From positions 104,031 through 168,030 of the forward strand of contig JBPOHU010000001.1 in the NCBI GenBank assembly GCA_052035195.1: a DNA stretch of 64,000 nt. The letters run 5' to 3'. Position 1 is the stretch's first letter. Each line of letters opens with the position of its first letter. The DNA comes from Candidatus Nomurabacteria bacterium (GTDB taxonomy: Bacteria; Patescibacteriota; Minisyncoccia; Phycocordibacterales; UBA9973). Of this stretch, positions 2,328 through 15,934 are shown piece by piece. The notes beneath the pieces were generated by a model. It had not been told where the DNA came from. It did no database searches and worked only from the letters and a program-made list of their open reading frames with translations. Made by a program: the position numbers and the translations under genes.

Positions 2328-2345
2328 AAAATAGTTAGGCTTTTT

Positions 2346-2795
2346 TTATTGCTCTATATTTTTATGATTTTCGTGAGCCTTAGTGTGTAGGATTTCTAGT
2401 TTTTTTGAAATAAGGATAAGCTCGTCTTTTATATCAGCAATAGCTGTCACTTCATTTTTAAGATCTTCTTCTGTTCTTTCACTAAGTTTCTTTTCGCCAC
2501 GAAGACCAGAGAGGATAAGTTCATTACCAATAAAGCTAGAAGTGAATGCTCTAGTGAAGTACAAAATAATAAAACCAATTAAAAATGATAGTGGTCCGTC
2601 CCACCAAAGGCCAGATGGCAAACTCAAAGAAGAAGATAGAGATAGGCTACTAATCATTTCATGAAGGTAGTCTGCGCTGTGCCATACTCCACGCCAAAAT
2701 AAGACTATACCTATTCCAACTATTAGAGCGTATGTTTTTGGGTGATGACTAAGCTTTTCTTGGATTTTATGTTTTGTTTTTTTGAAGATACTCAT
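2346..2795 (-). CDS. hypothetical membrane protein
   Basis: 149-aa ORF with hydrophobic segments (IVGIGIVLFWRGVW, LIGFIILYF). Confidence 0.35.
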   Translation of the reverse strand: MSIFKKTKHKIQEKLSHHPKTYALIVGIGIVLFWRGVWHSADYLHEMISSLSLSSSLSLPSGLWWDGPLSFLIGFIILYFTRAFTSSFIGNELILSGLRGEKKLSERTEEDLKNEVTAIADIKDELILISKKLEILHTKAHENHKNIEQ

Positions 2796-2821
2796 GTTTC
2801 TATTTTACACTTTTTATTTTG

Positions 2822-2895
2822 TGCGCGATACAGGGATCGAACCTGTCACCTCAGCAATGTCAATGCTGCGCTCTAACCATATGAGCTAACCGCGC
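2822..2895 (-). tRNA. tRNA-Val (anticodon GAC)
   Basis: Reverse complement folds as a cloverleaf: acceptor GCGCGGT/ATCGCGC, D-stem GCTC/GAGC, anticodon stem CAGCA/TGCTG with loop TTGACAT, T-arm ACAGG-TTCGATC-CCTGT. No encoded CCA. Confidence 0.8.
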
Positions 2896-2983
2896 GAGTT
2901 GGTCAAAAAATTATAACAGGAATATCAAATATTTGCCAATAATAATATTTTGTGGTATAAAAAACTAAACTAAAACCATTATT

Positions 2984-3472
2984 ATGGAACTGAAAACCAA
3001 TGTTCTTTGCGATCTGCGGGGCGCAGATATAGCACTTTTTCCTCTGTTTGATAAAAACGGGATTGAATATAAAAAGTTTATTTCGAAAGAAGTCTCAGAG
3101 TGGGACATTATCGGAGTGGCTAGCCTGCCGCCATTTTTTTTGAACCGTTTAAATTTTTATGATGAAAACGGCAAAACTTATTTTAAGGACAAGGGAAAAG
3201 AAGTACCCGTTGTGATTTCTTCTATTAATTATGAACAACTTGAAAAAACCACCGTTTCCGAATTTTGGAACCAGTGCATGATGGTCGCTCATAAGGGGGT
3301 TCGGCCTCGTATTTGGATTCTGGCCCCAGATGATGTATGTAAGTACATCATTAGTCAATACATAGGAGAGGAGACTGCTGGCTTCTATCTCCATAATGAA
3401 GACACGGAGATCAACCTTTACTATGCTATCGAAAAAATTGGTAGCACAATAAAGGCCCATAAGATGTTTTAA
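2984..3472 (+). CDS. hypothetical protein
   Basis: 162-aa ORF between two tRNA genes; no recognisable domain; followed by a strong terminator. Confidence 0.4.
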   Translation: MELKTNVLCDLRGADIALFPLFDKNGIEYKKFISKEVSEWDIIGVASLPPFFLNRLNFYDENGKTYFKDKGKEVPVVISSINYEQLEKTTVSEFWNQCMMVAHKGVRPRIWILAPDDVCKYIISQYIGEETAGFYLHNEDTEINLYYAIEKIGSTIKAHKMF

Positions 3473-3482
3473 AATAATCAGC

Positions 3483-3508
3483 CACCCCAAGTAAGGGGTG
3501 GTTTTTTG
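3483..3508 (+). terminator. rho-independent terminator
   Basis: CCACCCC-aagtaa-GGGGTGG followed by TTTTTTG. Confidence 0.7.
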
Positions 3509-3559
3509 ATTTTTTAGGAACTCATGTTAGAATGTTTTCGCTCATAAGGCACAACTTAT

Positions 3560-3631
3560 GGCCCTATCGTCTATCGGTTAGGACGAAAGCTTTTCAAGCT
3601 TTAAAGCGGGGTTCGACTCCCCGTAGGGTCA
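3560..3631 (+). tRNA. tRNA-Glu (anticodon TTC)
   Basis: Cloverleaf: acceptor GGCCCTA/TAGGGTC, D-stem GTCT/GGAC, anticodon stem AAAGC/GCTTT with loop TTTTCAA, T-arm CGGGG-TTCGACT-CCCCG, discriminator A. Confidence 0.8.
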
Positions 3632-3643
3632 CAACGCAAAAAG

Positions 3644-3898: not shown

Positions 3899-4666
3899 TT
3901 ATGCAGGTATTGAGAACAGTTCCAGGGATTTTTTAACATAATCTCTGGCTGTTTCAATATTAAGGCTATCGTATTCTTTGTTACGCAGCCGTCCTTCTGC
4001 ATCAATGCTTAGGTCCGGGAAATCTTTTACCAACGGCTCGATCAGGTCAAGCGTTGTCGGGCTCAGTCCACCAGCTACACCCAGGCCGAAGTCATTCGGT
4101 TTTACACTTAATGCTTCCAGGTAGCTTCTGGCAATGTCAGGGTTAAATGGCTGTCCTGTTCCACCGCTCGGATCGAGCAGAACGTAGTCAATAAGACCAG
4201 CATATTCGCTGTGTACCTTGTCGGCCAACTTCTTTGGTGAATGTGATATTTCTTCAAAGGCACCACCGCCAATCTGCAGAACAATACTTTTGTCAGGATG
4301 CAGTTCTTTGTAATCCTCCAGTACTCTTACTGAAGGCCATGCGATGTTCAGCTGGAACCCGTTGAAGTGATTACCGGCGAGTTCAGTTACCAACAAAAGT
4401 TGTGGTAGCAGGCTTTCAGGTTCTTTGGTGTTGAAGTGCACCAGGTTCAGGCAGTCTTCAATGTTAGGAAAAATGTTTACCACTTCTCCGATTGCCGGAT
4501 AACGGCCGGGCCATTTGTTCGGAATTCCTTGCAGACTTTTACTGCTTGCGAGAACTCCCACCATCAACATCCTGTCTGCCTTTTTAAGGTCAGTACTGTC
4601 CAGGACGCCAAAGACTTCGGTAGGGGACATAAACCCCGTGATGCCAACATAAGGTTTCTTTTTCAT
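3899..4666 (-). CDS. phosphoribosylanthranilate isomerase (TrpF)-like TIM-barrel protein; cassette gene A
   Basis: MKKKPYVGITGF..., LLDPSGGTGQPFNPD and GLGVAGGLSPTTL match TrpF motifs (KICGIT / LLDxxGGTGxxFDW / LAGGL). Visibly higher GC than its neighbours. The ORF-finder's TTG start at 4723 probably just reads through the conserved leader. Confidence 0.5.
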   Translation of the reverse strand: MKKKPYVGITGFMSPTEVFGVLDSTDLKKADRMLMVGVLASSKSLQGIPNKWPGRYPAIGEVVNIFPNIEDCLNLVHFNTKEPESLLPQLLLVTELAGNHFNGFQLNIAWPSVRVLEDYKELHPDKSIVLQIGGGAFEEISHSPKKLADKVHSEYAGLIDYVLLDPSGGTGQPFNPDIARSYLEALSVKPNDFGLGVAGGLSPTTLDLIEPLVKDFPDLSIDAEGRLRNKEYDSLNIETARDYVKKSLELFSIPA

Positions 4667-4689
4667 TGTTAAATTTTTCTTTACATTAA

Positions 4690-4737
4690 CATTTCCATTA
4701 GATTCGTCAATATTAGGTTCCAAAACTCACTATAAAG
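4690..4737 (-). promoter_or_regulatory. conserved promoter/leader module M2, copy A (minus strand: TTGACG-N16-TGnTAATGT)
   Basis: Minus-strand read: ...GTGAGTTTTGGAACCTAATATTGACGAATCTAATGGAAATGTTAATGTAAAG..., near-identical to copies at 5752-5799 and 6443-6467, always directly upstream of a start codon. Confidence 0.6.
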
Positions 4738-4749
4738 TCTTGTGAACAA

Positions 4750-4785
4750 GAAAGCCGCCCATTTTATGGACGGCTACAACTTCAA
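4750..4785 (-). terminator. intrinsic terminator of the 79-aa gene (minus)
   Basis: Minus-strand read: GCCGTCCA-taaaa-TGGGCGGC followed by TTTCTTGTT. Confidence 0.5.
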
Positions 4786-4793
4786 AATCTTTT

Positions 4794-5033
4794 TCACAAT
4801 TTAACTGAAAGCAAAACCTTTGCAACCTCAACAACTTCTTCCAGATTTGAATATAAACCGTTTGCTATGCTTTCTACAAAATCTGTATAAAGATAGCATT
4901 CCGGTTCATTATCTCGTCTTTCGTTCATTGCACGTGATAGTCTACTAAGAGATTTTATGCTTTCAATTTCTTTAACTACTGCTTCTTTGGTTAACTTTTC
5001 CATGATTATTTGTTTTGTTTTCGCAACTAACAA
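4794..5033 (-). CDS. small hypothetical protein (79 aa; 69 aa if the ATG at 5003 is used)
   Basis: ORF with SD AAGGAAAC 9 nt upstream of the TTG at 5033; own canonical promoter and own terminator; sits between cassette units. Confidence 0.4.
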   Translation of the reverse strand: MLVAKTKQIIMEKLTKEAVVKEIESIKSLSRLSRAMNERRDNEPECYLYTDFVESIANGLYSNLEEVVEVAKVLLSVKL

Positions 5034-5065
5034 ATCAAAAAAGTTTCCTTAAAAGCCTTTAATTA

Positions 5066-5094
5066 ATATTAGCATATTATTAACACTTTGTCAA
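5066..5094 (-). promoter_or_regulatory. sigma70-type promoter TTGACA-N17-TAATAT (minus strand)
   Basis: Minus-strand read: TTGACAAAGTGTTAATAATATGCTAATAT. Confidence 0.55.
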
Positions 5095-5143
5095 TACTAT
5101 GTTAAACTGCATAAATAAATTAATACTTTTAACTATTAGTTTT

Positions 5144-5186
5144 CAAAACTCACTATAAAGGGTCACAAATTTGGGTAATAAAAAAG
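5144..5186 (+). repeat. M2 3' part fused to M1 copy 2 (CAAAACTCACTATAAAGGGTCACAAATTTGGGTAATAAAAAAG)
   Basis: Direct sequence identity with 5781-5825 and partial identity with 3829-3855 / 4721-4737. Confidence 0.8.
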
Positions 5187-5203
5187 AACTGAATAATCAG
5201 TCC
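5186..5203 (-). terminator. intrinsic terminator of cassette gene B (minus)
   Basis: Minus-strand read: GGACTGA-ttat-TCAGTTC followed by TTTTTTATT (the T-tract is the M1 A-run). Confidence 0.55.
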
Positions 5204-5229
5204 TTTAAAAAAATACTTTAGATTTAAAT

Positions 5230-5727
5230 CTATCTCTTTCCAACAAGGAATCTTGCTGTTGGGGATAAGGATATATTTTTATTTACCTCAATAAAACCAA
5301 GGTTGTAAAGACAACCGTTTCCATCTGGTTGTAAATAAACTATTCCCGGTATACCGTCACCATCGGATACATCATCCATTAGTGACACAATAGCTGTTCC
5401 ACGATCAAAATTAGTAGTTCTTAAGTGGTTAATGTAGTTAATAACATAAGTAACACTAATTTTTGAGTAACCCATCTGGAGACTTTTTTCTATTACGTCT
5501 TCCATTGTAAAAGTGTCACCGAGACCGAGATCGTTTTTATCAATAACACCTATTTCGCTCAATGGAGCAATAGGATTCTCGAGGGGTACATCTACCAATC
5601 TGCTGACGCTACCACCAGTCATTAGGTCTCCATAAATATCGTCTACATTTCTACTTTTTAATATTTTTTCTGCCTCTTTTACACTGAGGAATTGAGAAAA
5701 CCCATCTGTTCTAATTGTATAGTTCAT
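5230..5727 (-). CDS. hypothetical protein, cassette gene B
   Basis: 165-aa ORF, ATG directly downstream of M2 copy B with SD AAGGAAAA; AT-rich; no recognisable domain. Confidence 0.5.
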   Translation of the reverse strand: MNYTIRTDGFSQFLSVKEAEKILKSRNVDDIYGDLMTGGSVSRLVDVPLENPIAPLSEIGVIDKNDLGLGDTFTMEDVIEKSLQMGYSKISVTYVINYINHLRTTNFDRGTAIVSLMDDVSDGDGIPGIVYLQPDGNGCLYNLGFIEVNKNISLSPTARFLVGKR

Positions 5728-5751
5728 GTTAATAAATTTTCCTTACCTTAT

Positions 5752-5799
5752 CATTTCCACGATATTCGTCAATATAGGTTTCAAAAACTCACTACAAAG
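5752..5799 (-). promoter_or_regulatory. conserved promoter/leader module M2, copy B
   Basis: Minus-strand read: GTGAGTTTTTGAAACCTATATTGACGAATATCGTGGAAATGATAAGGTAAGGAAAATTTATTAAC-ATG; -35 TTGACG, 16-nt spacer, extended -10 TGATAAGGT. Confidence 0.6.
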
Positions 5800-5825
5800 G
5801 GTCACAAATTTGGGTAATAAAAAAG
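5799..5825 (+). repeat. repeat module M1 copy 3
   Basis: GGGTCACAAATTTGGGTAATAAAAAAG identical to 5160-5186. Confidence 0.8.
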
Positions 5826-5864
5826 CCCACATAATTGCGGACTTGTATAGATTTTTTTACAGAG

Positions 5865-6404
5865 CTATTTAGCTAAAAGCGCTTTCATTACCAATAAATG
5901 TGCGGCATCCTTTAATAACCCTGGAGCATTCAATATCATACCTTTCGGTTTAATATGACCAAAGTGTGTACTAGGAACTCTTCCCAATGAATTTATTCCG
6001 TTTAAAGGATCAAGAAAAAGGTTTTTTTCTTTAAGTAGGCTGACGCCTCTTCCCCAAAGTATTTCAGCCGTATGACTGAAATCCCATCTTGTTACAACAA
6101 CTGAGTAACGTCTACCATTGCGTTTACAATGTTTCCTTTGAATTGTAATAACAACATCAGATTCTACTTCATTTTTTGCTACTTCAAAAATAGGCGTATC
6201 AAATTTATGTATTCTTTCGATAGTATCTAAGCGTTCCTGTTTGGCAAGTTGCAATAAATTGCAATTTGGACCGATACAGGGTTCTTTTACAAATACTTTC
6301 AATTTGATATTTTTAAGCTCAAGATTAGGAATAGATATTCCGGCAATTTCTGCACAAGTGTACAACAAGGTATCTGGGTTTGGGGATAATATTAATGCAT
6401 CCAT
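5865..6404 (-). CDS. hypothetical protein, cassette gene C (contains an Rx4H motif RWDFSH)
   Basis: ORF with in-frame ATG at 6404 (MDALILSPNP...). The finder's longer version starts at 6485 inside the M2 leader and would overlap the HxlR stop. RWDFSH resembles a HEPN Rx4-6H motif, but this is tentative. Confidence 0.45.
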   Translation of the reverse strand: MDALILSPNPDTLLYTCAEIAGISIPNLELKNIKLKVFVKEPCIGPNCNLLQLAKQERLDTIERIHKFDTPIFEVAKNEVESDVVITIQRKHCKRNGRRYSVVVTRWDFSHTAEILWGRGVSLLKEKNLFLDPLNGINSLGRVPSTHFGHIKPKGMILNAPGLLKDAAHLLVMKALLAK

Positions 6405-6442
6405 ATAGACTGTTTTTGTGTAAAGATTTTTTACCACACTAC

Positions 6443-6467
6443 CATTTCCATGATATTCGTCAATATA
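6443..6467 (-). promoter_or_regulatory. conserved promoter/leader module M2, copy C (partial, abuts HxlR stop)
   Basis: Minus-strand read: TTATATTGACGAATATCATGGAAATGGTAGTGTGG; same -35 / conserved spacer GGAAATG / extended -10 TGGTAGTGT. Confidence 0.55.
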
Positions 6468-6469
6468 AC

Positions 6470-6757
6470 TTATTTCTTCCCCCAAGATTCCATAGCATCG
6501 ATAACTTTTTTAAGTTTTTTACCATTTGGAGTTAGGGCGTAGTGAAGCTCATCTTTTTTATAGATTATTTTCTCAGCTTCTAGTCTTTTGAGTTTTAGAG
6601 TTAGAGTTCTAGTGCTTATGCCTGCGAGAGATCGCTCTAGTTCACAAAACCTCATAGGATTATTTAATAAGTCACGAATAATAAGCATAGTCCATGTATC
6701 AGATAGGAGAGTCGCTGTTTTACTAACAGCACAAGATGTATGAGTAGAAGGCTTCAT
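6470..6757 (-). CDS. HxlR-family winged-helix transcriptional regulator
   Basis: CAVSKTATLLSDTWTMLIIRDLLNNPMRFCELERSLAGISTRTLTLKLKRLEAEKII matches the HxlR family pattern; divergent from a YceI-like gene. Confidence 0.65.
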   Translation of the reverse strand: MKPSTHTSCAVSKTATLLSDTWTMLIIRDLLNNPMRFCELERSLAGISTRTLTLKLKRLEAEKIIYKKDELHYALTPNGKKLKKVIDAMESWGKK

Positions 6758-6861: not shown

Positions 6862-7389
6862 ATGAAAACATGGAATATTGATACAACTCATTCAGAAATA
6901 GGGTTTAAGGTTAAACACTTGATGATTTCAACTGTTAGAGGACTTTTCTCTTCTTTTGAAGGGTCTATCAGTGCGCAAGACGAAAGCTTTGATAATGGAC
7001 AAATCAGCTTTTCCGCTGACGTAAGCAGTATTGATACAAAAAATGCACAACGTGATGGGCACCTCAAGAGTGCTGACTTCTTTGATGCTGAAAACTTTCC
7101 TAAACTTACTTTCTCTTCAACTTCTGTAAAAAAAGTAGGGGATAACAAACTGGAAATCACTGGAGACCTCACTATGCGAGGAGTAACAAAATCAGTGAGT
7201 CTAAATGCTTCAGTCACAGGCGTAGTTAAAGGTATGGACGGAGCCCAAGTAGCTGGTTTTGAAATTTCTGGAAAGATAAATCGATCTGAATTTGGACTAG
7301 TTTGGAATGCACCACTAGAAACAGGCGGAGTAGTAGTCAGTGACTCTGTCACAATCGAAGCCTTAATAGAAGCAAAAGAACAAGCTTAA
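6862..7389 (+). CDS. YceI-family polyisoprenoid-binding protein
   Basis: WNIDTTHSEIGFKVKHLMISTVRGLFSSFEG...DGHLKSADFFDAENFPKLTF matches YceI-like domain signatures. Confidence 0.75.
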   Translation: MKTWNIDTTHSEIGFKVKHLMISTVRGLFSSFEGSISAQDESFDNGQISFSADVSSIDTKNAQRDGHLKSADFFDAENFPKLTFSSTSVKKVGDNKLEITGDLTMRGVTKSVSLNASVTGVVKGMDGAQVAGFEISGKINRSEFGLVWNAPLETGGVVVSDSVTIEALIEAKEQA

Positions 7390-7399
7390 ATTAATAAAA

Positions 7400-7429
7400 A
7401 AACACCCTAAATTAGAGGGTGTTTTTTTA
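7400..7429 (+). terminator. rho-independent terminator
   Basis: AACACCCT-aaattag-AGGGTGTT followed by TTTTTTAT. Confidence 0.7.
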
Positions 7430-7489
7430 TTAAGTCAAGATTAATTGACTTGCTAGTGGTTACAACGTACCATTCTCAAAAAACTGTAT

Positions 7490-8632
7490 ATGGCTCAACA
7501 AAAATTGTTCGTTGATTCAAATAAAAAACTCAAAAAGGTTCTTCCAAAAGAACATGCTTATGATGAAGAGTTCAAAAGCTTAGATTTTATAATTGTTCCG
7601 TATGCATTTTTATTAGGGATTAAGAAAAACCATAAATTACAGCCTATTATTGAAAATAAAATACTCTGTGAACTTTTTTCTAAAAAAGGATCAGGGGATG
7701 TTGATTTAATCAATTTATTTATCAAAAAAGAGGCGCTTTGGTTTAAAAAAGATCCATCAAAAATGTCTAAGGCAAACAATCTTTTATCAGAAGAAGAATT
7801 AAGACGTATCTTTATTTCTGGAGCACTTGAAATAAAATTTCGTCATAAAAGCATTTCTTCATTAAGAAGGTTGTTTAGGAAAAAGCTTCCTAATTCAAAA
7901 CCACCATTGGTTTTTGGTAAAATTGCTCGTTATATCAACAACGGTGCTAGTCACGAATTTTGGTATGAGGAAACAGGAGAAGAAATAGCTCAATTGTTTC
8001 CAGAATTTAGCCCTGAGCTCATTAAGGCTCTTTTGGCTATTACTTCTATAAGAGCAACGCTTCCTTCGAACGTTACAAAGTCTTTTAAGGCTTTGGATCA
8101 GTTCCATCGAACTGAACAGTTTGAGGTTCCTTTTGGTAAAAAGGGAGACAAGAAGATGATTAAAAGTAATTTTAAGGGTTTTCTTGATGCCCAGCTTCAT
8201 CATTTGAATTTACTTAAAAATGGGCAGTCTCTAACTGATCCAAAAAACCTACTAAAAAACGGGCGAAAGATTAAAATGTTTGCCAGTGCAATGGGGTCAG
8301 TTGAAGATGCTATTGTTGACGATGTTTGGATTACCAGAGCTTTTGGTTGCGACAGAAAAAGAGTTTTTGAAAGTCGTATAACTAGTCAGTCTCCCTCTAA
8401 GGCAATCTATGATGCAACAGAATGGTATTTACAAACTATTTCTAAGCTTGTAGATAAAAAACCAAGAGGTGTATGCGCGATGATTTGGGCGGGTATACGG
8501 CAAGAAACAAACAAAGAAACAGCCCGTTATACTGACCCAATAAAAAATCGACTAAACCATGGACTTTTTTCTGAGCAGTATGGAAACCTGAAACCCTCAA
8601 AAAAAGGAGGGATTGAGTTTGAATTATTTTAA
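7490..8632 (+). CDS. hypothetical protein (380 aa)
   Basis: Long ORF with its own terminator (AAAACCCTTT-aaacaa-AGGGTTTTTTT at ~8630-8660); no motif recognised. Confidence 0.4.
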   Translation: MAQQKLFVDSNKKLKKVLPKEHAYDEEFKSLDFIIVPYAFLLGIKKNHKLQPIIENKILCELFSKKGSGDVDLINLFIKKEALWFKKDPSKMSKANNLLSEEELRRIFISGALEIKFRHKSISSLRRLFRKKLPNSKPPLVFGKIARYINNGASHEFWYEETGEEIAQLFPEFSPELIKALLAITSIRATLPSNVTKSFKALDQFHRTEQFEVPFGKKGDKKMIKSNFKGFLDAQLHHLNLLKNGQSLTDPKNLLKNGRKIKMFASAMGSVEDAIVDDVWITRAFGCDRKRVFESRITSQSPSKAIYDATEWYLQTISKLVDKKPRGVCAMIWAGIRQETNKETARYTDPIKNRLNHGLFSEQYGNLKPSKKGGIEFELF

Positions 8633-8729
8633 AACCCTTTAAACAAAGGGTTTTTTTATATACCTTTTTATCTTTTGGCAATCTTACGGATAGCAATTAT
8701 TTCTATATAATTTAAGCAAATATACACTA

Positions 8730-9914
8730 ATGAGAAATAGTACTTTAAAATCTGATTCAGAAGTGTCTAATCAAAATTTTCAAGAACAAAGTCATGTTTG
8801 GTCAAATGCCTGGCTGCCTCTTGATTTAGTTATTAAGTTTCCTCAAGTACGCAAAACCTTTGAAAAGGAATCATTGCAAGAGTTAGCTGATGATATAGCA
8901 AAAAATGGGCTTATACAGCCACCGATGATTGCTAAGTTATCAAAAGAAAATTTTGCAAAATATGTTGAAGTTTTTGAAAAAATATCAAAAACAAAACTTT
9001 TGCAATCAAGCTATCAATTTGAGGAAACTAATACTGGTGAAGTTTGGTATCATGTTTTAGTTGCCGGAGAACGTCGCTACAGAGCACATATGATTCTTTG
9101 GGAAACTGGTTGTACTGACTGCATAAATTCTGCAAGAGATAATAAAAAAACTCTTGAGAAAGGAGAATGCTTTTCAAAGCACTTTCCTCAGCAGTTAATG
9201 GAATCAAGGGTTGGTATTAATATTGACCCAGAAAAAGCAAAAAGTATTCAGTTTCGTGAAAATCATCATGTCAGACCTCCAGCCCATGAAGAAGCTTATG
9301 GTTACCGGGATTATTATGATCACCTGAAAACACTTAATCAAAAACTCACCCTTAAAGAATTTGCTGAAAGGGTAGGAGTTTCAGTTGAAAAAGTTCGGAG
9401 AGCCATATGGTTCTGTGAACTTCCAGACAGATTACGCCAAACAGTGGAAGACAAAATGATTTCGTACTCAAATGCCTTGGAGTTAAAACGTATCCTTCAA
9501 ATAGAAAGCATTGGTTTTAAAGAAAGAATTAAGATTATTAACAACGAAGTAGACTTCCTTCTTATTCATCAAAAGATAAAGAATGAAGATTACAAAAAGA
9601 GAGTCGATAATCTTATTTCTAGTTTTCAAATGCTAACATTGTTCGATACTAAAGAATTTGAAATGGGTAAAAAAGAGAAGCGCAAAGTAGTAAACGAAAA
9701 CCTACTTAAGGGTATTATCCTAATGAGGGGGTATATGACCAAGCTAAACGCTATTATTCCTATGGGAATTATTGGTAAAGGTAGGGTGTATTCAGGTATT
9801 TCTCCAACTAACCAGGTTAAGTTCATCGTTGAAGAGCTCCAAAAAATTATTCCCGGGTTTAAACCTACGAAGCAACAACTGGAACAATTCAAAAAAATTG
9901 ATTTAGACATTTAA
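8730..9914 (+). CDS. ParB/Srx-like nuclease-domain protein with HTH and a Cys-rich insert
   Basis: VLVAGERRYRAHMIL (the ParB GERRxRA box) and KLTLKEFAERVGVSVEKVRRAIWF (ParB-type HTH). Extra CTDC...C cluster between them. Terminator AAAACCCCTCA-ttcg-TGAGGGGTTTTT follows. Confidence 0.55.
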   Translation: MRNSTLKSDSEVSNQNFQEQSHVWSNAWLPLDLVIKFPQVRKTFEKESLQELADDIAKNGLIQPPMIAKLSKENFAKYVEVFEKISKTKLLQSSYQFEETNTGEVWYHVLVAGERRYRAHMILWETGCTDCINSARDNKKTLEKGECFSKHFPQQLMESRVGINIDPEKAKSIQFRENHHVRPPAHEEAYGYRDYYDHLKTLNQKLTLKEFAERVGVSVEKVRRAIWFCELPDRLRQTVEDKMISYSNALELKRILQIESIGFKERIKIINNEVDFLLIHQKIKNEDYKKRVDNLISSFQMLTLFDTKEFEMGKKEKRKVVNENLLKGIILMRGYMTKLNAIIPMGIIGKGRVYSGISPTNQVKFIVEELQKIIPGFKPTKQQLEQFKKIDLDI

Positions 9915-9942
9915 AACCCCTCATTCGTGAGGGGTTTTTATT

Positions 9943-14080: not shown

Positions 14081-15934
14081 CTATAAACGAGCAGGATTTA
14101 TCAAAAAAGTATAAGGAAATCGTAGTTCTTGCAAAAAGGCTTGTATTTCATCGCAGTTTTCTTGAATGAAGTTTTCTTCTCTTTGAATAATCCAAACACA
14201 TAAAAGCTTCATACTATCTGGACTTATACGGCGAACTGGCAGGAGCGTTATGTCACTTTTATCGAAGAAATTCTCTATTTTTTGCACCAAGATCTCTCTG
14301 TGAGCACTTGGAACCGTTATTGACAACTTCATTAGAGAACCAAATGGCGGATATTTTAAAAGAGTGCGAGATTCCATGTCGTTATCAATAATTTCTTGAA
14401 TCTTTTTTGTTGCTAACTGTTTTGTAATAATAAAATCCGGTTTTTTTGTACAAAGAATCAGAGTGTCTTTTACTTTTTCATTACAAACCATGATAAGCCT
14501 GAGAACTTCTTCTATAGCAAATGGTGATGGGATAGATAAAAGTCGATCAAAAAAAGGAATAGCGATGAAATCAACTTGTTTTATATAAGGAAGCATTTTT
14601 TGAGTTCCAACCATAACAAACCATTTTTGTTTTTGTATTTCAGAGAGTAGTCCATCTACATTTTTTGAATCAGGGGCTATGTCATCGTCTATTGTTATTA
14701 TGTTTGAAGGTTCAATGATATTTGATAATGCTTCATAAATACTTTCTGTGCCTACAGAAACAGGGGTAATATTCCAACTAGCACAGTAGTCACAAACGTG
14801 TGTAGTAGGTAAGGTGTCTCCACAATTTGTACAGATAAAAATCCTCTGACGAGTTCCATCTACTGTTTTGTAGCGAAGCACTACTGGTAGTCCACAAGTC
14901 TTACAATCAACACTAGTTCCACAATCAGCACATCTAGATATAGGGGCCAATCCTTTTCTGTTTGTATAAATAAAAAGACTTTTCTTGTTTTTTTGACAAT
15001 ACCTGACAAGTTCTATCGTTTCTGTTGGAAGTATTGTTCTATATGTCTCTGTTGGTACTATTACGAGTTTTTCCGGAGTAAATGATCTAGCTAGGTGCAT
15101 AGAGTTTGATTTATATAATGTCTCAAACCTAGGAAGAGTGTCTCCAAAAACTATATTTAAGTTCAAAGATTGATAGATAGACTCTATCACTATTCGCATA
15201 TCTGCTTCATACCGATCACTTGTTTTATAAAGAGAACTAGTCTCATCTTCAAGGATGATAGTGGAGATATCATTTCTAGGAACACATGAGTACTGAGGTG
15301 TAGTACATATAAAAAGAGGTCTTTCAGAATTTTTTATTGTAGTTAGTGCGTTTTTTTGATCACGTTTTGTTATTTTGCTATGCAATATGACACTATGAGA
15401 AGTGATACCTTTTTGTAGAGAGTTATACCAATACTCAACAGACCGAATAGAAGGAGCTACTAAAACAATACTTTTCTTTTCAGCAAATGCTTCTCTGATA
15501 ATCCTTTTGTAATTATCTACTCTATCTAAAACGATTCCGTACACAGCCTTAGGAGGCTTTTTTTCTTCTTCTACTATTTCTATACTTGGTATTTTTTGAA
15601 ATATATCTATATAAGCATCATTTATAACAATACCCGCAAGAGATCCAATAGGTGTTAATGTTTTAGTACTTGCTGTACGCAAGCCTTCTATCAGAGCTCC
15701 ATAATAAGAAGAAAATCCTATAACTGATTTTATTTTCTTTAAAGAAAAAGTGGCTTGTTTGATACTGGTTTTTGCTTCTATCAAAGAAGTGCTTTCATAA
15801 ACTATCCCTTTGATAGCTTGTTTTCCAAGTGGAATCTCTATCAAAGTTCCAGGCGAAAGAGCGTCAGCACTATAATAACTAAGTGTGTTAAAGGGGATAC
15901 CTCTTGAAATTGGAATAACTGAAAGTATATACAT
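14081..15934 (-). CDS. priA: primosomal protein N' (PriA)-like, apparently lacking a canonical Walker A
   Basis: N-terminal 3'-DNA-binding-like region, IILEDETSS (DExx), CADCGTSVDCKTCG...CTNCGD...CDYCAS zinc-finger cluster typical of PriA. No GxxGxGK(T/S) was seen. Confidence 0.55.
   Translation of the reverse strand: MYILSVIPISRGIPFNTLSYYSADALSPGTLIEIPLGKQAIKGIVYESTSLIEAKTSIKQATFSLKKIKSVIGFSSYYGALIEGLRTASTKTLTPIGSLAGIVINDAYIDIFQKIPSIEIVEEEKKPPKAVYGIVLDRVDNYKRIIREAFAEKKSIVLVAPSIRSVEYWYNSLQKGITSHSVILHSKITKRDQKNALTTIKNSERPLFICTTPQYSCVPRNDISTIILEDETSSLYKTSDRYEADMRIVIESIYQSLNLNIVFGDTLPRFETLYKSNSMHLARSFTPEKLVIVPTETYRTILPTETIELVRYCQKNKKSLFIYTNRKGLAPISRCADCGTSVDCKTCGLPVVLRYKTVDGTRQRIFICTNCGDTLPTTHVCDYCASWNITPVSVGTESIYEALSNIIEPSNIITIDDDIAPDSKNVDGLLSEIQKQKWFVMVGTQKMLPYIKQVDFIAIPFFDRLLSIPSPFAIEEVLRLIMVCNEKVKDTLILCTKKPDFIITKQLATKKIQEIIDNDMESRTLLKYPPFGSLMKLSITVPSAHREILVQKIENFFDKSDITLLPVRRISPDSMKLLCVWIIQREENFIQENCDEIQAFLQELRFPYTFLINPARL

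Follow-up and report, generated by a model that had tools for sequence, protein, structure and literature searches.

A gene for a ParB-like protein lies, in the chromosome of an uncultured tiny-genome bacterium of the Paceibacterota (CPR/Patescibacteria), directly downstream of a gene for a 380-aa protein, and the question raised by this locus is what the two proteins are and whether they act together. In the 64-kb stretch of DNA that was analysed, here called the window, both open reading frames were confirmed as a sequence-only reading had given them, as were their flanks, with HxlR and YceI genes upstream of the first gene and trxB downstream of the second:

7490–8632, + strand: gene A, 380 aa, with an N-terminal helical domain (aa ~20–145) and a DUF7178 domain
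8730–9914, + strand: gene B, 394 aa, a ParA-less protein of the ParB family that combines a CTPase-type N-domain with a ParB HTH and a C-terminal domain specific to its family

We propose that B is a ParA-independent, CTP-gated ParB clamp and A a glycosylase/AP-lyase-like enzyme, and that the two are separately transcribed, conserved neighbours that are functionally linked, a reading to which we give roughly even chances. It starts from what was observed directly: which domains and motifs the proteins contain, the similarity in fold, the lack of a parA in the vicinity, the conserved gene order and the statistics of adjacency.

In HMM searches with both proteins, A stayed below the curated thresholds and B was recognized by PF02195 (ParB_N; 31.9 bits, above the Pfam cut-off of 26.3). 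PF17762 (HTH_ParB) matched B at 20 bits, slightly below its cut-off of 22.6, and the B family profile aligned with solved Spo0J, Noc and ParB chains over both the N-domain and the HTH (E 8e-11 to 1e-8). Conservation was scored across 17 homologues of 34–58% identity and, together with the profile scores, bears out the earlier assignment of B to the ParB family from its ParB box GERRYRA and its ParB-type HTH. GERRYRA is also the sole G[EHDQ]RR box among the window ORFs of more than 100 codons. The features of B are as follows:

8844–8861, + strand: equivalent of ParB box I, QVRKTF (Q39, R41 and F44 invariant in the 17 homologues)
8943–9044, + strand: insertion 1, ~32 aa between box I and box II, absent in canonical ParBs
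9066–9086, + strand: ParB box II, GERRYRA (G113–R116 and R118 invariant, A119 in 16 of the 17 homologues)
9111–9182, + strand: insertion 2, C128-x2-C131...C147-x3-H151, a knuckle within the CTPase domain that is predicted to bind zinc
9258–9263, + strand: box III, E177-N178, invariant and equivalent to ENLQR of canonical ParB
9288–9494, + strand: ParB-type HTH DNA-binding domain, aa 187–255 of B

Q39, R41, E177 and N178 align with the QPR and ENLQR motifs of canonical ParBs; all three CTP motifs are present in B, and nucleotide binding is predicted. B thus has in common with chromosomal ParB/Spo0J the box I Q-x-R, the box II GERRxRA, the box III E-N, the ParB-type HTH and a C-terminal domain. 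It differs in its two CTPase-domain insertions (one of them CxxC...CxxxH), in the lack of an LGRGL peptide and of a canonical parS, and in its C-terminal ~140 aa, which are not recognized as a ParB dimerization domain (PF23552, the ParB C-terminal domain, was not detected in B by HMM search). The Cys-rich insert noticed in the sequence-only reading is real and conserved, with C128 invariant and C131, C147 and H151 each kept in at least 90% of the 17 homologues. GERRxRA and the ParB HTH, within a full partition-type architecture, rule out a DGQHR/nuclease-type ParB, and the idea that B is of the ParB/Srx nuclease-domain type had to be given up in view of this architecture and the CTP motifs. 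The best NCBIfam match of B was Noc, and its best PDB matches were chromosomal ParB/Spo0J with Noc second. The Noc model TIGR04285 gave 37 bits against a cut-off of 315, over aa 39–74 only, and B was rejected as a Noc equivalog on this score; TIGR00180 was likewise below its cut-off (30.8 versus 58.45). The long N-terminal extension that had been described is present, but it amounts to just ~30 aa, which are hydrophilic, unconserved family-wide and missing in several homologues. Because the N-terminus is unconserved, a Noc-type membrane helix in B appears unlikely.

No ParA gene is found next to B, as had been stated before, and this applies to the window and to the relatives of B. The 64-kb window contains neither a KGGxGK[ST] Walker A motif nor a Soj homologue at E<1e-5, and there is no parA within 10 kb of the family members L001–L021 (about 10 lineages), whereas nearly every one of the ~65 canonical ParBs that the same scan retrieved has soj/parA immediately upstream. 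The LG(R/K)GL ParA-activating N-terminal motif is absent from B and all its relatives and present in the co-aligned canonical ParBs. A canonical parS, allowing three mismatches, was not found near B in the 64-kb window, and the compared lineages have no 12–16-nt palindrome in common, though B may have a non-canonical site. In our reading the B clade has lost the ParA-activating peptide and acquired two insertions within its nucleotide-binding domain, of which one is a Cys3His zinc-type knuckle that would bind zinc. B would then be a DNA clamp that binds CTP, loads at its site via the ParB HTH, closes under the control of the nucleotide and subsequently slides or spreads. In its apparent independence of ParA B resembles the chromosomal ParB of Streptococcus pneumoniae, which Minnen et al. 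reportedly found in 2011 to work without ParA. Noc, KorB and VirB are similarly orphan ParB-family proteins with a CTP domain and an HTH that act without ParA; unlike these proteins, B has no KorA-like partner and no known H-NS context, and it scores far below the Noc cut-off. Orphan ParBs without a ParA-binding motif are widespread (bioRxiv 10.1101/2025.10.10.680097).

The statement that A has no recognizable domain holds at curated HMM thresholds only, and structure prediction does give a recognizable fold. DUF7178 (PF23802) matches aa 174–338 of A weakly (19.6 bits, E 1e-3; gathering threshold 27 bits). It is matched by 71 of the 73 profile-linked relatives of A (best E 4.7e-16), and P0037, a close homologue, carries a precomputed DUF7178 annotation. 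A has 226 relatives in representative clusters, the domain core lying at aa ~145–365, and the N-terminal helical domain (aa ~20–145) is specific to full-length A-type relatives. Two features of A are central:

7922–8584, + strand: DUF7178 domain of A (aa ~145–365), with an HhH-GPD DNA-glycosylase-like predicted fold
8261–8323, + strand: predicted HhH-GPD catalytic segment G258-R-K260...D278 (K260 codon 8267–8269, D278 codon 8321–8323)

An AF2 model built on the alignment of 73 sequences (pLDDT 93.5, pTM 0.91) predicts a two-lobed helical fold with a helix-hairpin-helix, similar to that of the HhH-GPD glycosylases, and in a Foldseek search with this model the best four matches were all OGG1, none of them significant. 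K260 and D278 are the sole invariant columns among the 73 relatives, and again among 15 stand-alone domains. Their spacing of 18 residues is that of K120 and D138 in E. coli Endonuclease III, which we take to be the numbering of the catalytic pair of Nth. When two different sub-alignments were compared with E. coli Nth by hhalign, the only alignment obtained placed GRK260...VDD278 on GRK120...AVD138, at a probability of about 1%. PF00730 (HhH-GPD) does not match A and matches 2 of the 73 relatives weakly (E about 0.04), and an HMM search of the PDB with A gave no match to solved structures. From the predicted fold we infer that A may be a previously unrecognized member of the HhH-GPD DNA-glycosylase superfamily, the sequence-level link being not significant, and its predicted activity is that of a bifunctional DNA glycosylase/AP lyase in which Lys260 and Asp278 would stand in place of the Endonuclease III/Ogg catalytic pair. 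HMM methods detect no sequence similarity of A to the HhH-GPD glycosylases (Nth, Ogg1/Ogg2/AGOG, AlkA, MagIII, MutY) and DUF2419/Qng1; further differences from the HhH-GPD glycosylases are the lack of Fe-S cluster cysteines, three extra beta-hairpins and the 145-aa N-terminal helical domain.

The same DUF7178 domain is found in proteins of 700–1700 aa with ART-PolyVal, DUF3293, InPase, methyltransferase, Topo IB and helicase domains. A is like these phage polyvalent proteins in that its aa 174–338 match the same domain, weakly, and unlike them in that it is a chromosomal, single-domain-plus-extension protein of the CPR with no close relative in phage collections. A literature search returned no publication mentioning DUF7178, and a glycosylase domain is not mentioned in the polyvalent-protein paper (Iyer et al. 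2017, PMC5512222). If our assignment is true, it gives DUF7178, which is common in phage polyvalent proteins (226 representative clusters), a testable biochemical role, that of a DNA glycosylase/AP lyase whose catalytic residues can be named.

In seven lineages, among which the identity of B falls to 37–45%, A precedes B on the same strand at a distance of 97–123 nt; the flanks of the pair differ in L005 and, in part, in L007. The orphan ParB with a Cys-rich insert thus has the 380-aa protein as a conserved upstream neighbour in seven independent lineages. Co-conservation of the partner, which the sequence-only reading had made a test, is real yet not strict, since each gene also occurs alone. 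The A-then-B order survives differing flanks and a functional link is therefore favoured, so that the adjacency hints at a new partnership. Two known systems suggest what form it might take. In 7-deazaguanine DNA modification, the ParB-fold protein DpdB is encoded with, and needed by, the base-processing DpdA (PMC10164549), and in phages the ParB-fold protein of ParB-5mYOX is encoded with, and needed by, the thymine dioxygenase 5mYOX (PMC13229309); both enzymes flip a base in dsDNA and process it. We propose the same architecture for B and A, by analogy only and not as membership: the ParB clamp would interact with the A enzyme and supply it with DNA loading or activation, possibly coupled as in DpdB–DpdA. 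DpdB, unlike B, combines a DGQQR motif with an SspE-like C-domain and lacks a ParB HTH (PMC10164549), and DpdA is a TGT-fold transglycosylase, whereas the predicted fold of A is HhH-GPD-like. Membership of A and B in the Dpd family was rejected because A has an HhH-GPD-like rather than a TGT predicted fold and B has GERR and the ParB HTH. The 5mYOX-associated ParB, in turn, differs from B in having no DNA-binding domain, and in contrast with both systems A and B are separate transcription units and each also occurs alone. Should adjacency mean cooperation, the pair would add a third case, distinct in mechanism, in which a DNA base-flipping enzyme is aided by a ParB-fold protein. A more far-reaching version, which we regard as doubtful, is that A and B form an undescribed two-component base-processing system, in which a CTP clamp with a zinc (possibly redox-sensitive) insert would load on dsDNA and deliver or activate an enzyme of HhH-GPD fold that removes or swaps one particular base. 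In CPR bacteria such a system might serve to mark the genome, to counter modified phage DNA or in targeted repair, and the phage polyvalent DUF7178 domains would be DNA glycosylases.

The functional link has to be weighed above all against the view that there is no coupling, with B a housekeeping ParA-independent centromere or SMC-loading ParB and A an independent base-excision-repair enzyme that is its neighbour by local synteny. We consider this possible, although a good deal short of probable. It is favoured by the transcription signals of the locus:

7400–7431, + strand: intrinsic terminator of yceI, hairpin AAACACCCT-aaattag-AGGGTGTTT (7400–7424), then a T run
7432–7451, no strand assigned: inverted repeat AAGTCAA-GATTAA-TTGACTT, overlapping the -35 box, a candidate operator
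7445–7473, + strand: predicted sigma-70-type promoter of A, TTGACT-17-TACCAT
8631–8654, + strand: intrinsic terminator of A, 10-bp stem, then a T run
8675–8711, + strand: upstream region of B, with a conserved element, a possible -35 and a -10
9913–9938, no strand assigned: terminator hairpin between the convergent B and trxB, 11-bp stem

The yceI terminator shields gene A from the transcription of yceI. In relatives, too, the -35 TTGACT and a -10 resembling CGTAAnAT precede A, and an equivalent hairpin follows A in L005, L093, L098 and L015. Each gene has its own terminator, as the sequence-only reading had it, at 8631–8654 after A and 9913–9938 after B, and the separate promoters and terminators were counted against a link. 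The same applies to the occurrence of each gene alone. B is found without A in three close lineages, namely L011, L012 and L009/L010 (58% identity, ranking next behind the near-identical L093 and the loci of the same species), as well as in three distant relatives with the Zn insert (L019–L021). B-type proteins of other CPR MAGs (Uhrbacteria) and of two MAGs labelled Gammaproteobacteria likewise lack an A in their vicinity; B clearly also has a role that needs no A. L095 and L100, conversely, have A but no B beside it, and an unrelated 251–284-aa protein is found in the slot of B. The divergences of A and B are furthermore discordant (A 75% and B 45% between the window and L098, A 62% and B 78% between L098 and L015), and the whole A–B block is syntenic with trxB-ftsZ-ftsA. 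Against these points stands the preservation of order, strand and a spacing of ~100 nt in the seven lineages down to 37–45% B identity, including L005 with its entirely different flanks. Synteny in CPR genomes normally decays faster than the adjacency of A and B has.

The surroundings of the pair bear on a second alternative, according to which A and B are a conflict module for defence or DNA modification, A excising or exchanging, for example, a phage-modified base and B being an NTP-regulated sensor or nuclease partner that can be swapped with other effectors. As a domain typical of phage polyvalent proteins, DUF7178 occurs there in fusion with many others (PMC5512222), and ParB-fold partners occur in the Dpd and 5mYOX DNA-modification systems (PMC10164549, PMC13229309). 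The protein in the slot of B in L095 and L100 has a GIY-YIG-like motif and looks like partner swapping, but this assignment is very weak (E 0.18). The tRNA-Glu-to-A interval also differs between relatives, and the variable part of the locus is a ~3.8-kb stretch inserted upstream of A in the window. The pair itself, in contrast, is stable: the block tRNA-Glu / A / B / trxB / ftsZ / ftsA / ybeY is syntenic across relatives (L098, L093, L009), and therefore its position is not an accessory one, as had been thought plausible. B keeps its synteny with trxB-ftsZ-ftsA in the window, L093, L098, L009, L007 and L013, has no close relative in IMG/VR and lies in a region with the nucleotide composition of its surroundings, which fits a vertically inherited chromosomal gene. 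Close relatives of A or B were absent from the phage and IMG/VR collections, and no methylase or restriction genes are present near A–B. PADLOC gave no significant match, with none for A and just a 17-bit HTH-level match to mad1 for B. With the partition-type rather than DGQHR/nuclease-type architecture of B added to this, we think a conflict module unlikely.

Still less probable, in our judgement, is that B is a KorB/VirB-like CTP-dependent transcription regulator that controls A and itself, with the repeat on the -35 of A and/or the element upstream of B as its operator. There is a precedent in VirB, an orphan ParB-like regulator that acts as a CTP switch outside partition (PMC10770331). The palindrome at 7432–7451 is indeed present in the upstream promoter region and unique in the window, its right arm being the -35 box (TTGACT) of the predicted A promoter. 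Of the seven lineages compared for it, four retain the arms despite differing spacers, namely the window, L093, L095 (GTCAA-N5-TTGAC) and L015 (AAGTCAAAC...GTTTGACTT). Upstream of B, the element TTGGCAATCTTAC (8675–8687) has the consensus TTGRCAAKMTTAC in five lineages and TTGGCAAT in two more, and overlaps a possible -35 TTACGG (8684–8689), with a -10 TATAAT at 8706–8711. However, the repeat is absent upstream of A in L098, L005 and L007, all of which have B, it persists in L095, where no B adjoins A, and it differs in sequence from the element upstream of B. Perfect repeats with 7-nt arms and loops of 0–8 nt number 147 in the window versus about 64 in random sequence, and a 7-6-7 inverted repeat alone is not remarkable. 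As a parS the palindrome was rejected, since it is a single copy on the -35 of the A promoter and kept in just four of the seven lineages compared, and the search for parS-like palindromes thus yielded neither a parS-like repeat at 7432–7451 nor a palindrome shared among lineages.

That B belongs as an ordinary ParB to a canonical ParABS system with parA and parS beyond the window, whose 64 kb are part of a contig measuring at least 195 kb, has the least to recommend it: the best PDB and NCBIfam matches of B are chromosomal ParB/Spo0J and Noc, but the missing LG(R/K)GL motif, the low TIGR00180 score and the lack of a neighbouring parA and of a canonical parS all speak against it.

Irrespective of A, the B clade extends the growing list of ParB-fold switches beyond partition. 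It comes almost entirely from CPR MAGs, with two distant relatives labelled Gammaproteobacteria, and a ParA-free ParB clade with a zinc-type insert in the CTPase domain bears on chromosome organization and segregation in ultra-small episymbionts. The distant relatives L019 and L021 share insertion 2, which has been lost in P0015, and insertion 1 is common to B and the Saccharibacteria orphan ParBs L024 and L035.

Gene B, which encodes a ParB-family protein of 394 aa, follows directly on gene A, which encodes a 380-aa protein with a putative DUF7178 (PF23802) domain at approximately residues 145-365. Both ORFs were recovered where the sequence-only reading of this DNA had placed them, as was the separate terminator that it had assigned to each gene. 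The locus is laid out as follows.

2821-2895, minus strand: tRNA-Val, upstream of gene A
3560-3632, plus strand: tRNA-Glu, upstream of gene A
3899-6485, minus strand: four ORFs (274, 79, 165 and 206 aa) without a Pfam match, adjoining tRNA-Glu
Between these four ORFs and gene A: hxlR (minus strand), then yceI (plus strand)
7400-7431: Rho-independent terminator after yceI
7432-7451: inverted repeat AAGTCAA-N6-TTGACTT, one copy in the window
Upstream of gene A: predicted promoter TTGACT-17-TACCAT, its -35 hexamer formed by the right arm of the inverted repeat
7490-8632, plus strand: gene A, 380 aa
8631-8654: Rho-independent terminator after gene A
8730-9914, plus strand: gene B, 394 aa
9913-9938: Rho-independent terminator after gene B
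Downstream of gene B, all minus strand: trxB, ftsZ, ftsA and ybeY

In seven lineages, namely the window species (loci L001-L003), L093, L098 (equivalent to L018), L015, L005, L007 and L013, gene A is found directly upstream of gene B on the same strand, separated from it by 97-123 nt that contain both a terminator and a promoter. The identity of B among these lineages goes down to 37-45%, and A and B are conserved neighbours. The flanks of the pair are entirely different in L005, and in L007 and L013 genes for FolD, a P-type ATPase and a lipase are inserted before trxB-ftsZ. The gene order is tRNA, orf, tRNA, A, B, trxB, ftsZ, ftsA, ybeY in L098 and hxlR-yceI-A-B-trxB-ftsZ-ftsA in L093, which indicates that the A-B block belongs to a conserved chromosomal neighbourhood. 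The accessory position earlier proposed for the pair is therefore not supported; the locus is core-syntenic, the DNA is chromosomal with a GC content of approximately 36% in the window, and the composition of the pair matches its surroundings. What does vary between relatives is the DNA from tRNA-Glu to gene A. In the window this comprises approximately 3.8 kb with four orphan ORFs and hxlR-yceI, which is absent from the same interval in L098 and L095, and L093 carries another ORF, of 370 aa, in this place; the stretch has the look of an insertion hotspot that varies between strains and adjoins a tRNA gene.

The B protein is almost certainly a member of the ParB family. A Pfam scan returned ParB_N above threshold and HTH_ParB slightly under it, and a 17-member profile of the B family matched the solved structures of Spo0J, Noc and ParB with E values of 8e-11 to 1e-8, the matches falling into three pieces that correspond to box I, box II and the HTH. 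The residues invariant in the family, whose members are 34-58% identical to B, are Q39, R41 and F44 in box I (QVRKTF), G113-E-R-R116 in box II and E177-N178 in box III, the equivalent of ENLQR, and these are the residues of the ParB nucleotide pocket. In an alignment with canonical ParBs drawn from the fetched loci, B showed an insertion of approximately 32 aa between boxes I and II and a second one of approximately 25-30 aa immediately past box II, which carries the Cys3His pattern C128-x2-C131...C147-x3-H151. The N-terminal LG(R/K)GL peptide, present in all canonical ParBs aligned, is wholly missing from B, and its scores against the parB_part and Noc models are far under the curated cut-offs. 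As judged from its sequence, B carries every feature that a ParB clamp gated by nucleotide and equipped with a sequence-reading HTH requires, and none of those that couple ParB to ParA. The Cys3His pattern also occurs in the distant relatives L021 (an Uhrbacteria MAG) and L019 (a MAG labelled Gammaproteobacteria), and the orphan ParBs of Saccharibacteria (L024 and L035) have the first insertion only.

Neither a Walker-A motif of the form KGGxGK[ST] nor a Soj homologue was present in the 64-kb window. The description of an orphan ParB, here with a conserved neighbour in seven lineages, is borne out. A scan of the B alignment against one genome per GTDB species gave 79 loci, on which a six-frame hmmsearch was then run. 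Approximately 65 canonical ParBs among these loci scored 35-65 bits against the B profile and had soj/parA directly upstream in almost all cases; for members of the B family itself (470-590 bits) and for its distant CPR relatives (200-250 bits), soj/parA was never found within 10 kb. These parA-less loci are in agreement with a recent survey reporting that orphan ParBs without a ParA-binding motif are common (bioRxiv 10.1101/2025.10.10.680097), which mentions neither the B family nor any association with a glycosylase. It is likely that B acts independently of ParA. Our literature search returned nothing on ParB in Patescibacteria/CPR. L019 and L020, both from MAGs labelled 'uncultured Gammaproteobacteria', encode B-type ParBs in a parA-less context, with a zinc-type insert in L019, the one inspected for it, and the ORF beside the L019 gene reads as IS200/transposase-like; the label could stem from a binning artefact; alternatively, the B family may extend past the CPR. 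The L018 MAG is labelled Saccharibacteria and is near-identical to the Paceibacterota-like L098; its ParB-like gene (2330-3534) is broken up into a pair of overlapping ORFs, which reflects either pseudogenisation by a frameshift or a mistake in the assembly.

The 380-aa partner had been described as having no recognisable domain, a view that the predicted structure corrects, its fold being recognisably glycosylase-like. At the sequence level, A gave a DUF7178 match only, which was sub-threshold, and profiles of A searched by HMM against the sequences of the PDB returned nothing meaningful. An exhaustive profile search gathered relatives in 226 representative clusters, which share a conserved core at approximately residues 145-365 and present it in three settings: full-length A-type proteins, stand-alone domains of approximately 200 aa, and multidomain proteins of 700-1700 aa with ART-PolyVal, DUF3293, InPase, methyltransferase, Topo IB and HATPase domains. 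Phages and conjugative elements encode proteins of this last type, known as 'polyvalent proteins' (PMC5512222). DUF7178 was matched by 71 of the 73 relatives aligned, and an AF2 model of A built on this alignment reached a pLDDT of 93.5 and a pTM of 0.91, replacing a poor earlier model from 15 close homologues (pLDDT 60). The structural matches of A include the HhH-GPD-fold queuine-salvage enzyme DUF2419, with unrelated membrane proteins next below; Foldseek against the PDB gave no significant match, the four best being OGG1, and against BFVD the domain matched phage polyvalent proteins.

Across the 73 aligned sequences only the columns of K260 and D278 never vary, and this pair is also invariant, again at a spacing of 18 residues, in 15 stand-alone domains. 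In the model it is placed on a predicted helix (259-268), loop, helix (279-284) arrangement. The local sequence, N-G-R-K260-I-K-M-F-A-S-A-M-G-S-V-E-D-A-I-V-D-D278-V-W-I-T-R-A-F, mirrors G-V-G-R-K120-T-A-N-V-V-L-N-T-A-F-G-W-P-T-I-A-V-D138-T-H-I-F-R-V of Endonuclease III, in which K120 and D138 form the catalytic pair. With two different sub-alignments, the sole alignment returned by hhalign had this same register of K260/D278 on K120/D138, at a score that was not significant. Based on the predicted structure and the logic of the motif, with sequence similarity that is not significant, DUF7178 is probably a divergent HhH-GPD family. Since both the lysine and the aspartate are retained, its members are probably bifunctional glycosylase/AP lyases, and no Fe-S cluster cysteines were found in the family. 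The A protein, as modelled, has the predicted fold and catalytic dyad of a base-excision enzyme, and we lean slightly towards it being an active glycosylase/lyase. A single Nth homologue was present among all fetched loci. A remote DUF7178 protein, P0108, is encoded alone in another chromosome in a housekeeping-gene context. Our literature search found DUF7178 in no paper, and tblastn of A and of one stand-alone DUF7178 protein against cultured phages gave no match.

The co-conservation of the pair holds for seven lineages, but the pairing is not obligate. Gene B occurs without A in L009/L010, L011, L012 and the distant L019-L021. L009/L010 is the next relative (58% identity) past the near-identical L093 and the same-species loci, and a tRNA gene abuts B there. 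In L009 the tRNA-Val...tRNA-Glu segment (7280-7916, corresponding to 2821-3632 in the window) runs in the opposite orientation to that in the window and L095. L009 has no gene A, and its tRNA-Val is immediately adjacent to the ParB-like gene; A may have been lost there when DNA between the tRNA genes was inverted or deleted. Conversely, L095 and L100 have gene A but no B beside it, and a homologous protein of 251-284 aa is encoded directly after A instead (L095 9288-10142, L100 1142-1897). This protein has a GIY...YxG...R pattern (PGMYLF...VYVGETSG), its sole database support being a very weak match to PF20815 GIY_YIG_2 (E 0.18), and it may replace B as the partner of the glycosylase-like A; the idea that the 284-aa protein of L095 is a degenerate B was dropped, the two being unrelated by hhalign.

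The two genes also diverge discordantly, since A is 75% and B 45% identical between the window and L098, and A is 62% and B 78% identical between L098 and L015, which suggests that one gene of the two recombined or was replaced, or that rates were very uneven. Scans of IMG/VR with the A alignment, the B alignment and two single DUF7178 proteins gave no A relatives and one distant ParB only, no close relatives of either family were found in cultured phages or IMG/VR, PADLOC made no defence assignment for A or B, and the literature held nothing on ParB together with HhH-GPD. We consider a functional coupling of A and B possible, at a little short of even chances. In the proposed mechanism, B would load onto DNA at some site and then close as a CTP-dependent clamp, its Cys3His insert would bind zinc and may modulate engagement of the N-domain, and A would excise a base and nick the AP site. 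By analogy with DpdB, which assists DpdA (PMC10164549), and with a phage ParB that assists a thymine dioxygenase on dsDNA (PMC13229309), B might give A access to duplex DNA or assist its action there. As B-type proteins are widespread without A, the primary role of B is probably chromosome organisation, with A as a lineage-specific client. The gain would be a possible ParB-glycosylase partnership and a functional annotation of DUF7178.

The 7-6-7 palindrome reported upstream of A is real and overlaps the -35 element of the A promoter. Its arms are kept in L093 (with another spacer), L095 (GTCAA-N5-TTGAC) and L015 (longer arms); in L098, L005 and L007 the -35 TTGACT is retained and the arms are not. 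As a parS site or general operator it was rejected, being a single copy in the window and not conserved in these last three, and perfect repeats with 7-nt arms number 147 in the window against approximately 64 expected; it is a possible operator, not a centromere. The 64-kb window has no canonical parS, searched for as TGTTTCACGTGAAACA with as many as 3 mismatches, and a de novo search for palindromes of 10-16 nt shared by 10-15 loci found none of at least 12 nt in common. The 10-mer TTTTGCAAAA is enriched (4 in the window, 0.76 expected) and also lies within B genes of four species; it was discarded as parS, having no extended consensus and being present in unrelated loci too, and its enrichment is a codon artefact of Phe-Ala-Lys (F-A-K) codons in B and ftsZ. 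Upstream of B, approximately 20-25 nt before TATAAT, the element TTGRCAAKMTTAC is conserved in the window (8675-8711), L093, L098, L015 and L005, with the version TTGGCAAT in L007 and L013, and it is kept though the B proteins of those lineages are only approximately 40-45% identical. This element could be a promoter with unusual spacing or the site of a regulator.

Further downstream, the window has its cumulative GC-skew minimum at approximately 13-15 kb, near the divergent junction of a 617-aa ORF and mreB. This ORF (14081-15934, minus strand) adjoins ybeY and is conserved in L001, L009 and L093. Its sole match is to the PriA 3'-DNA-binding domain, at a sub-threshold 19 bits, and it may encode a highly divergent PriA-like helicase.
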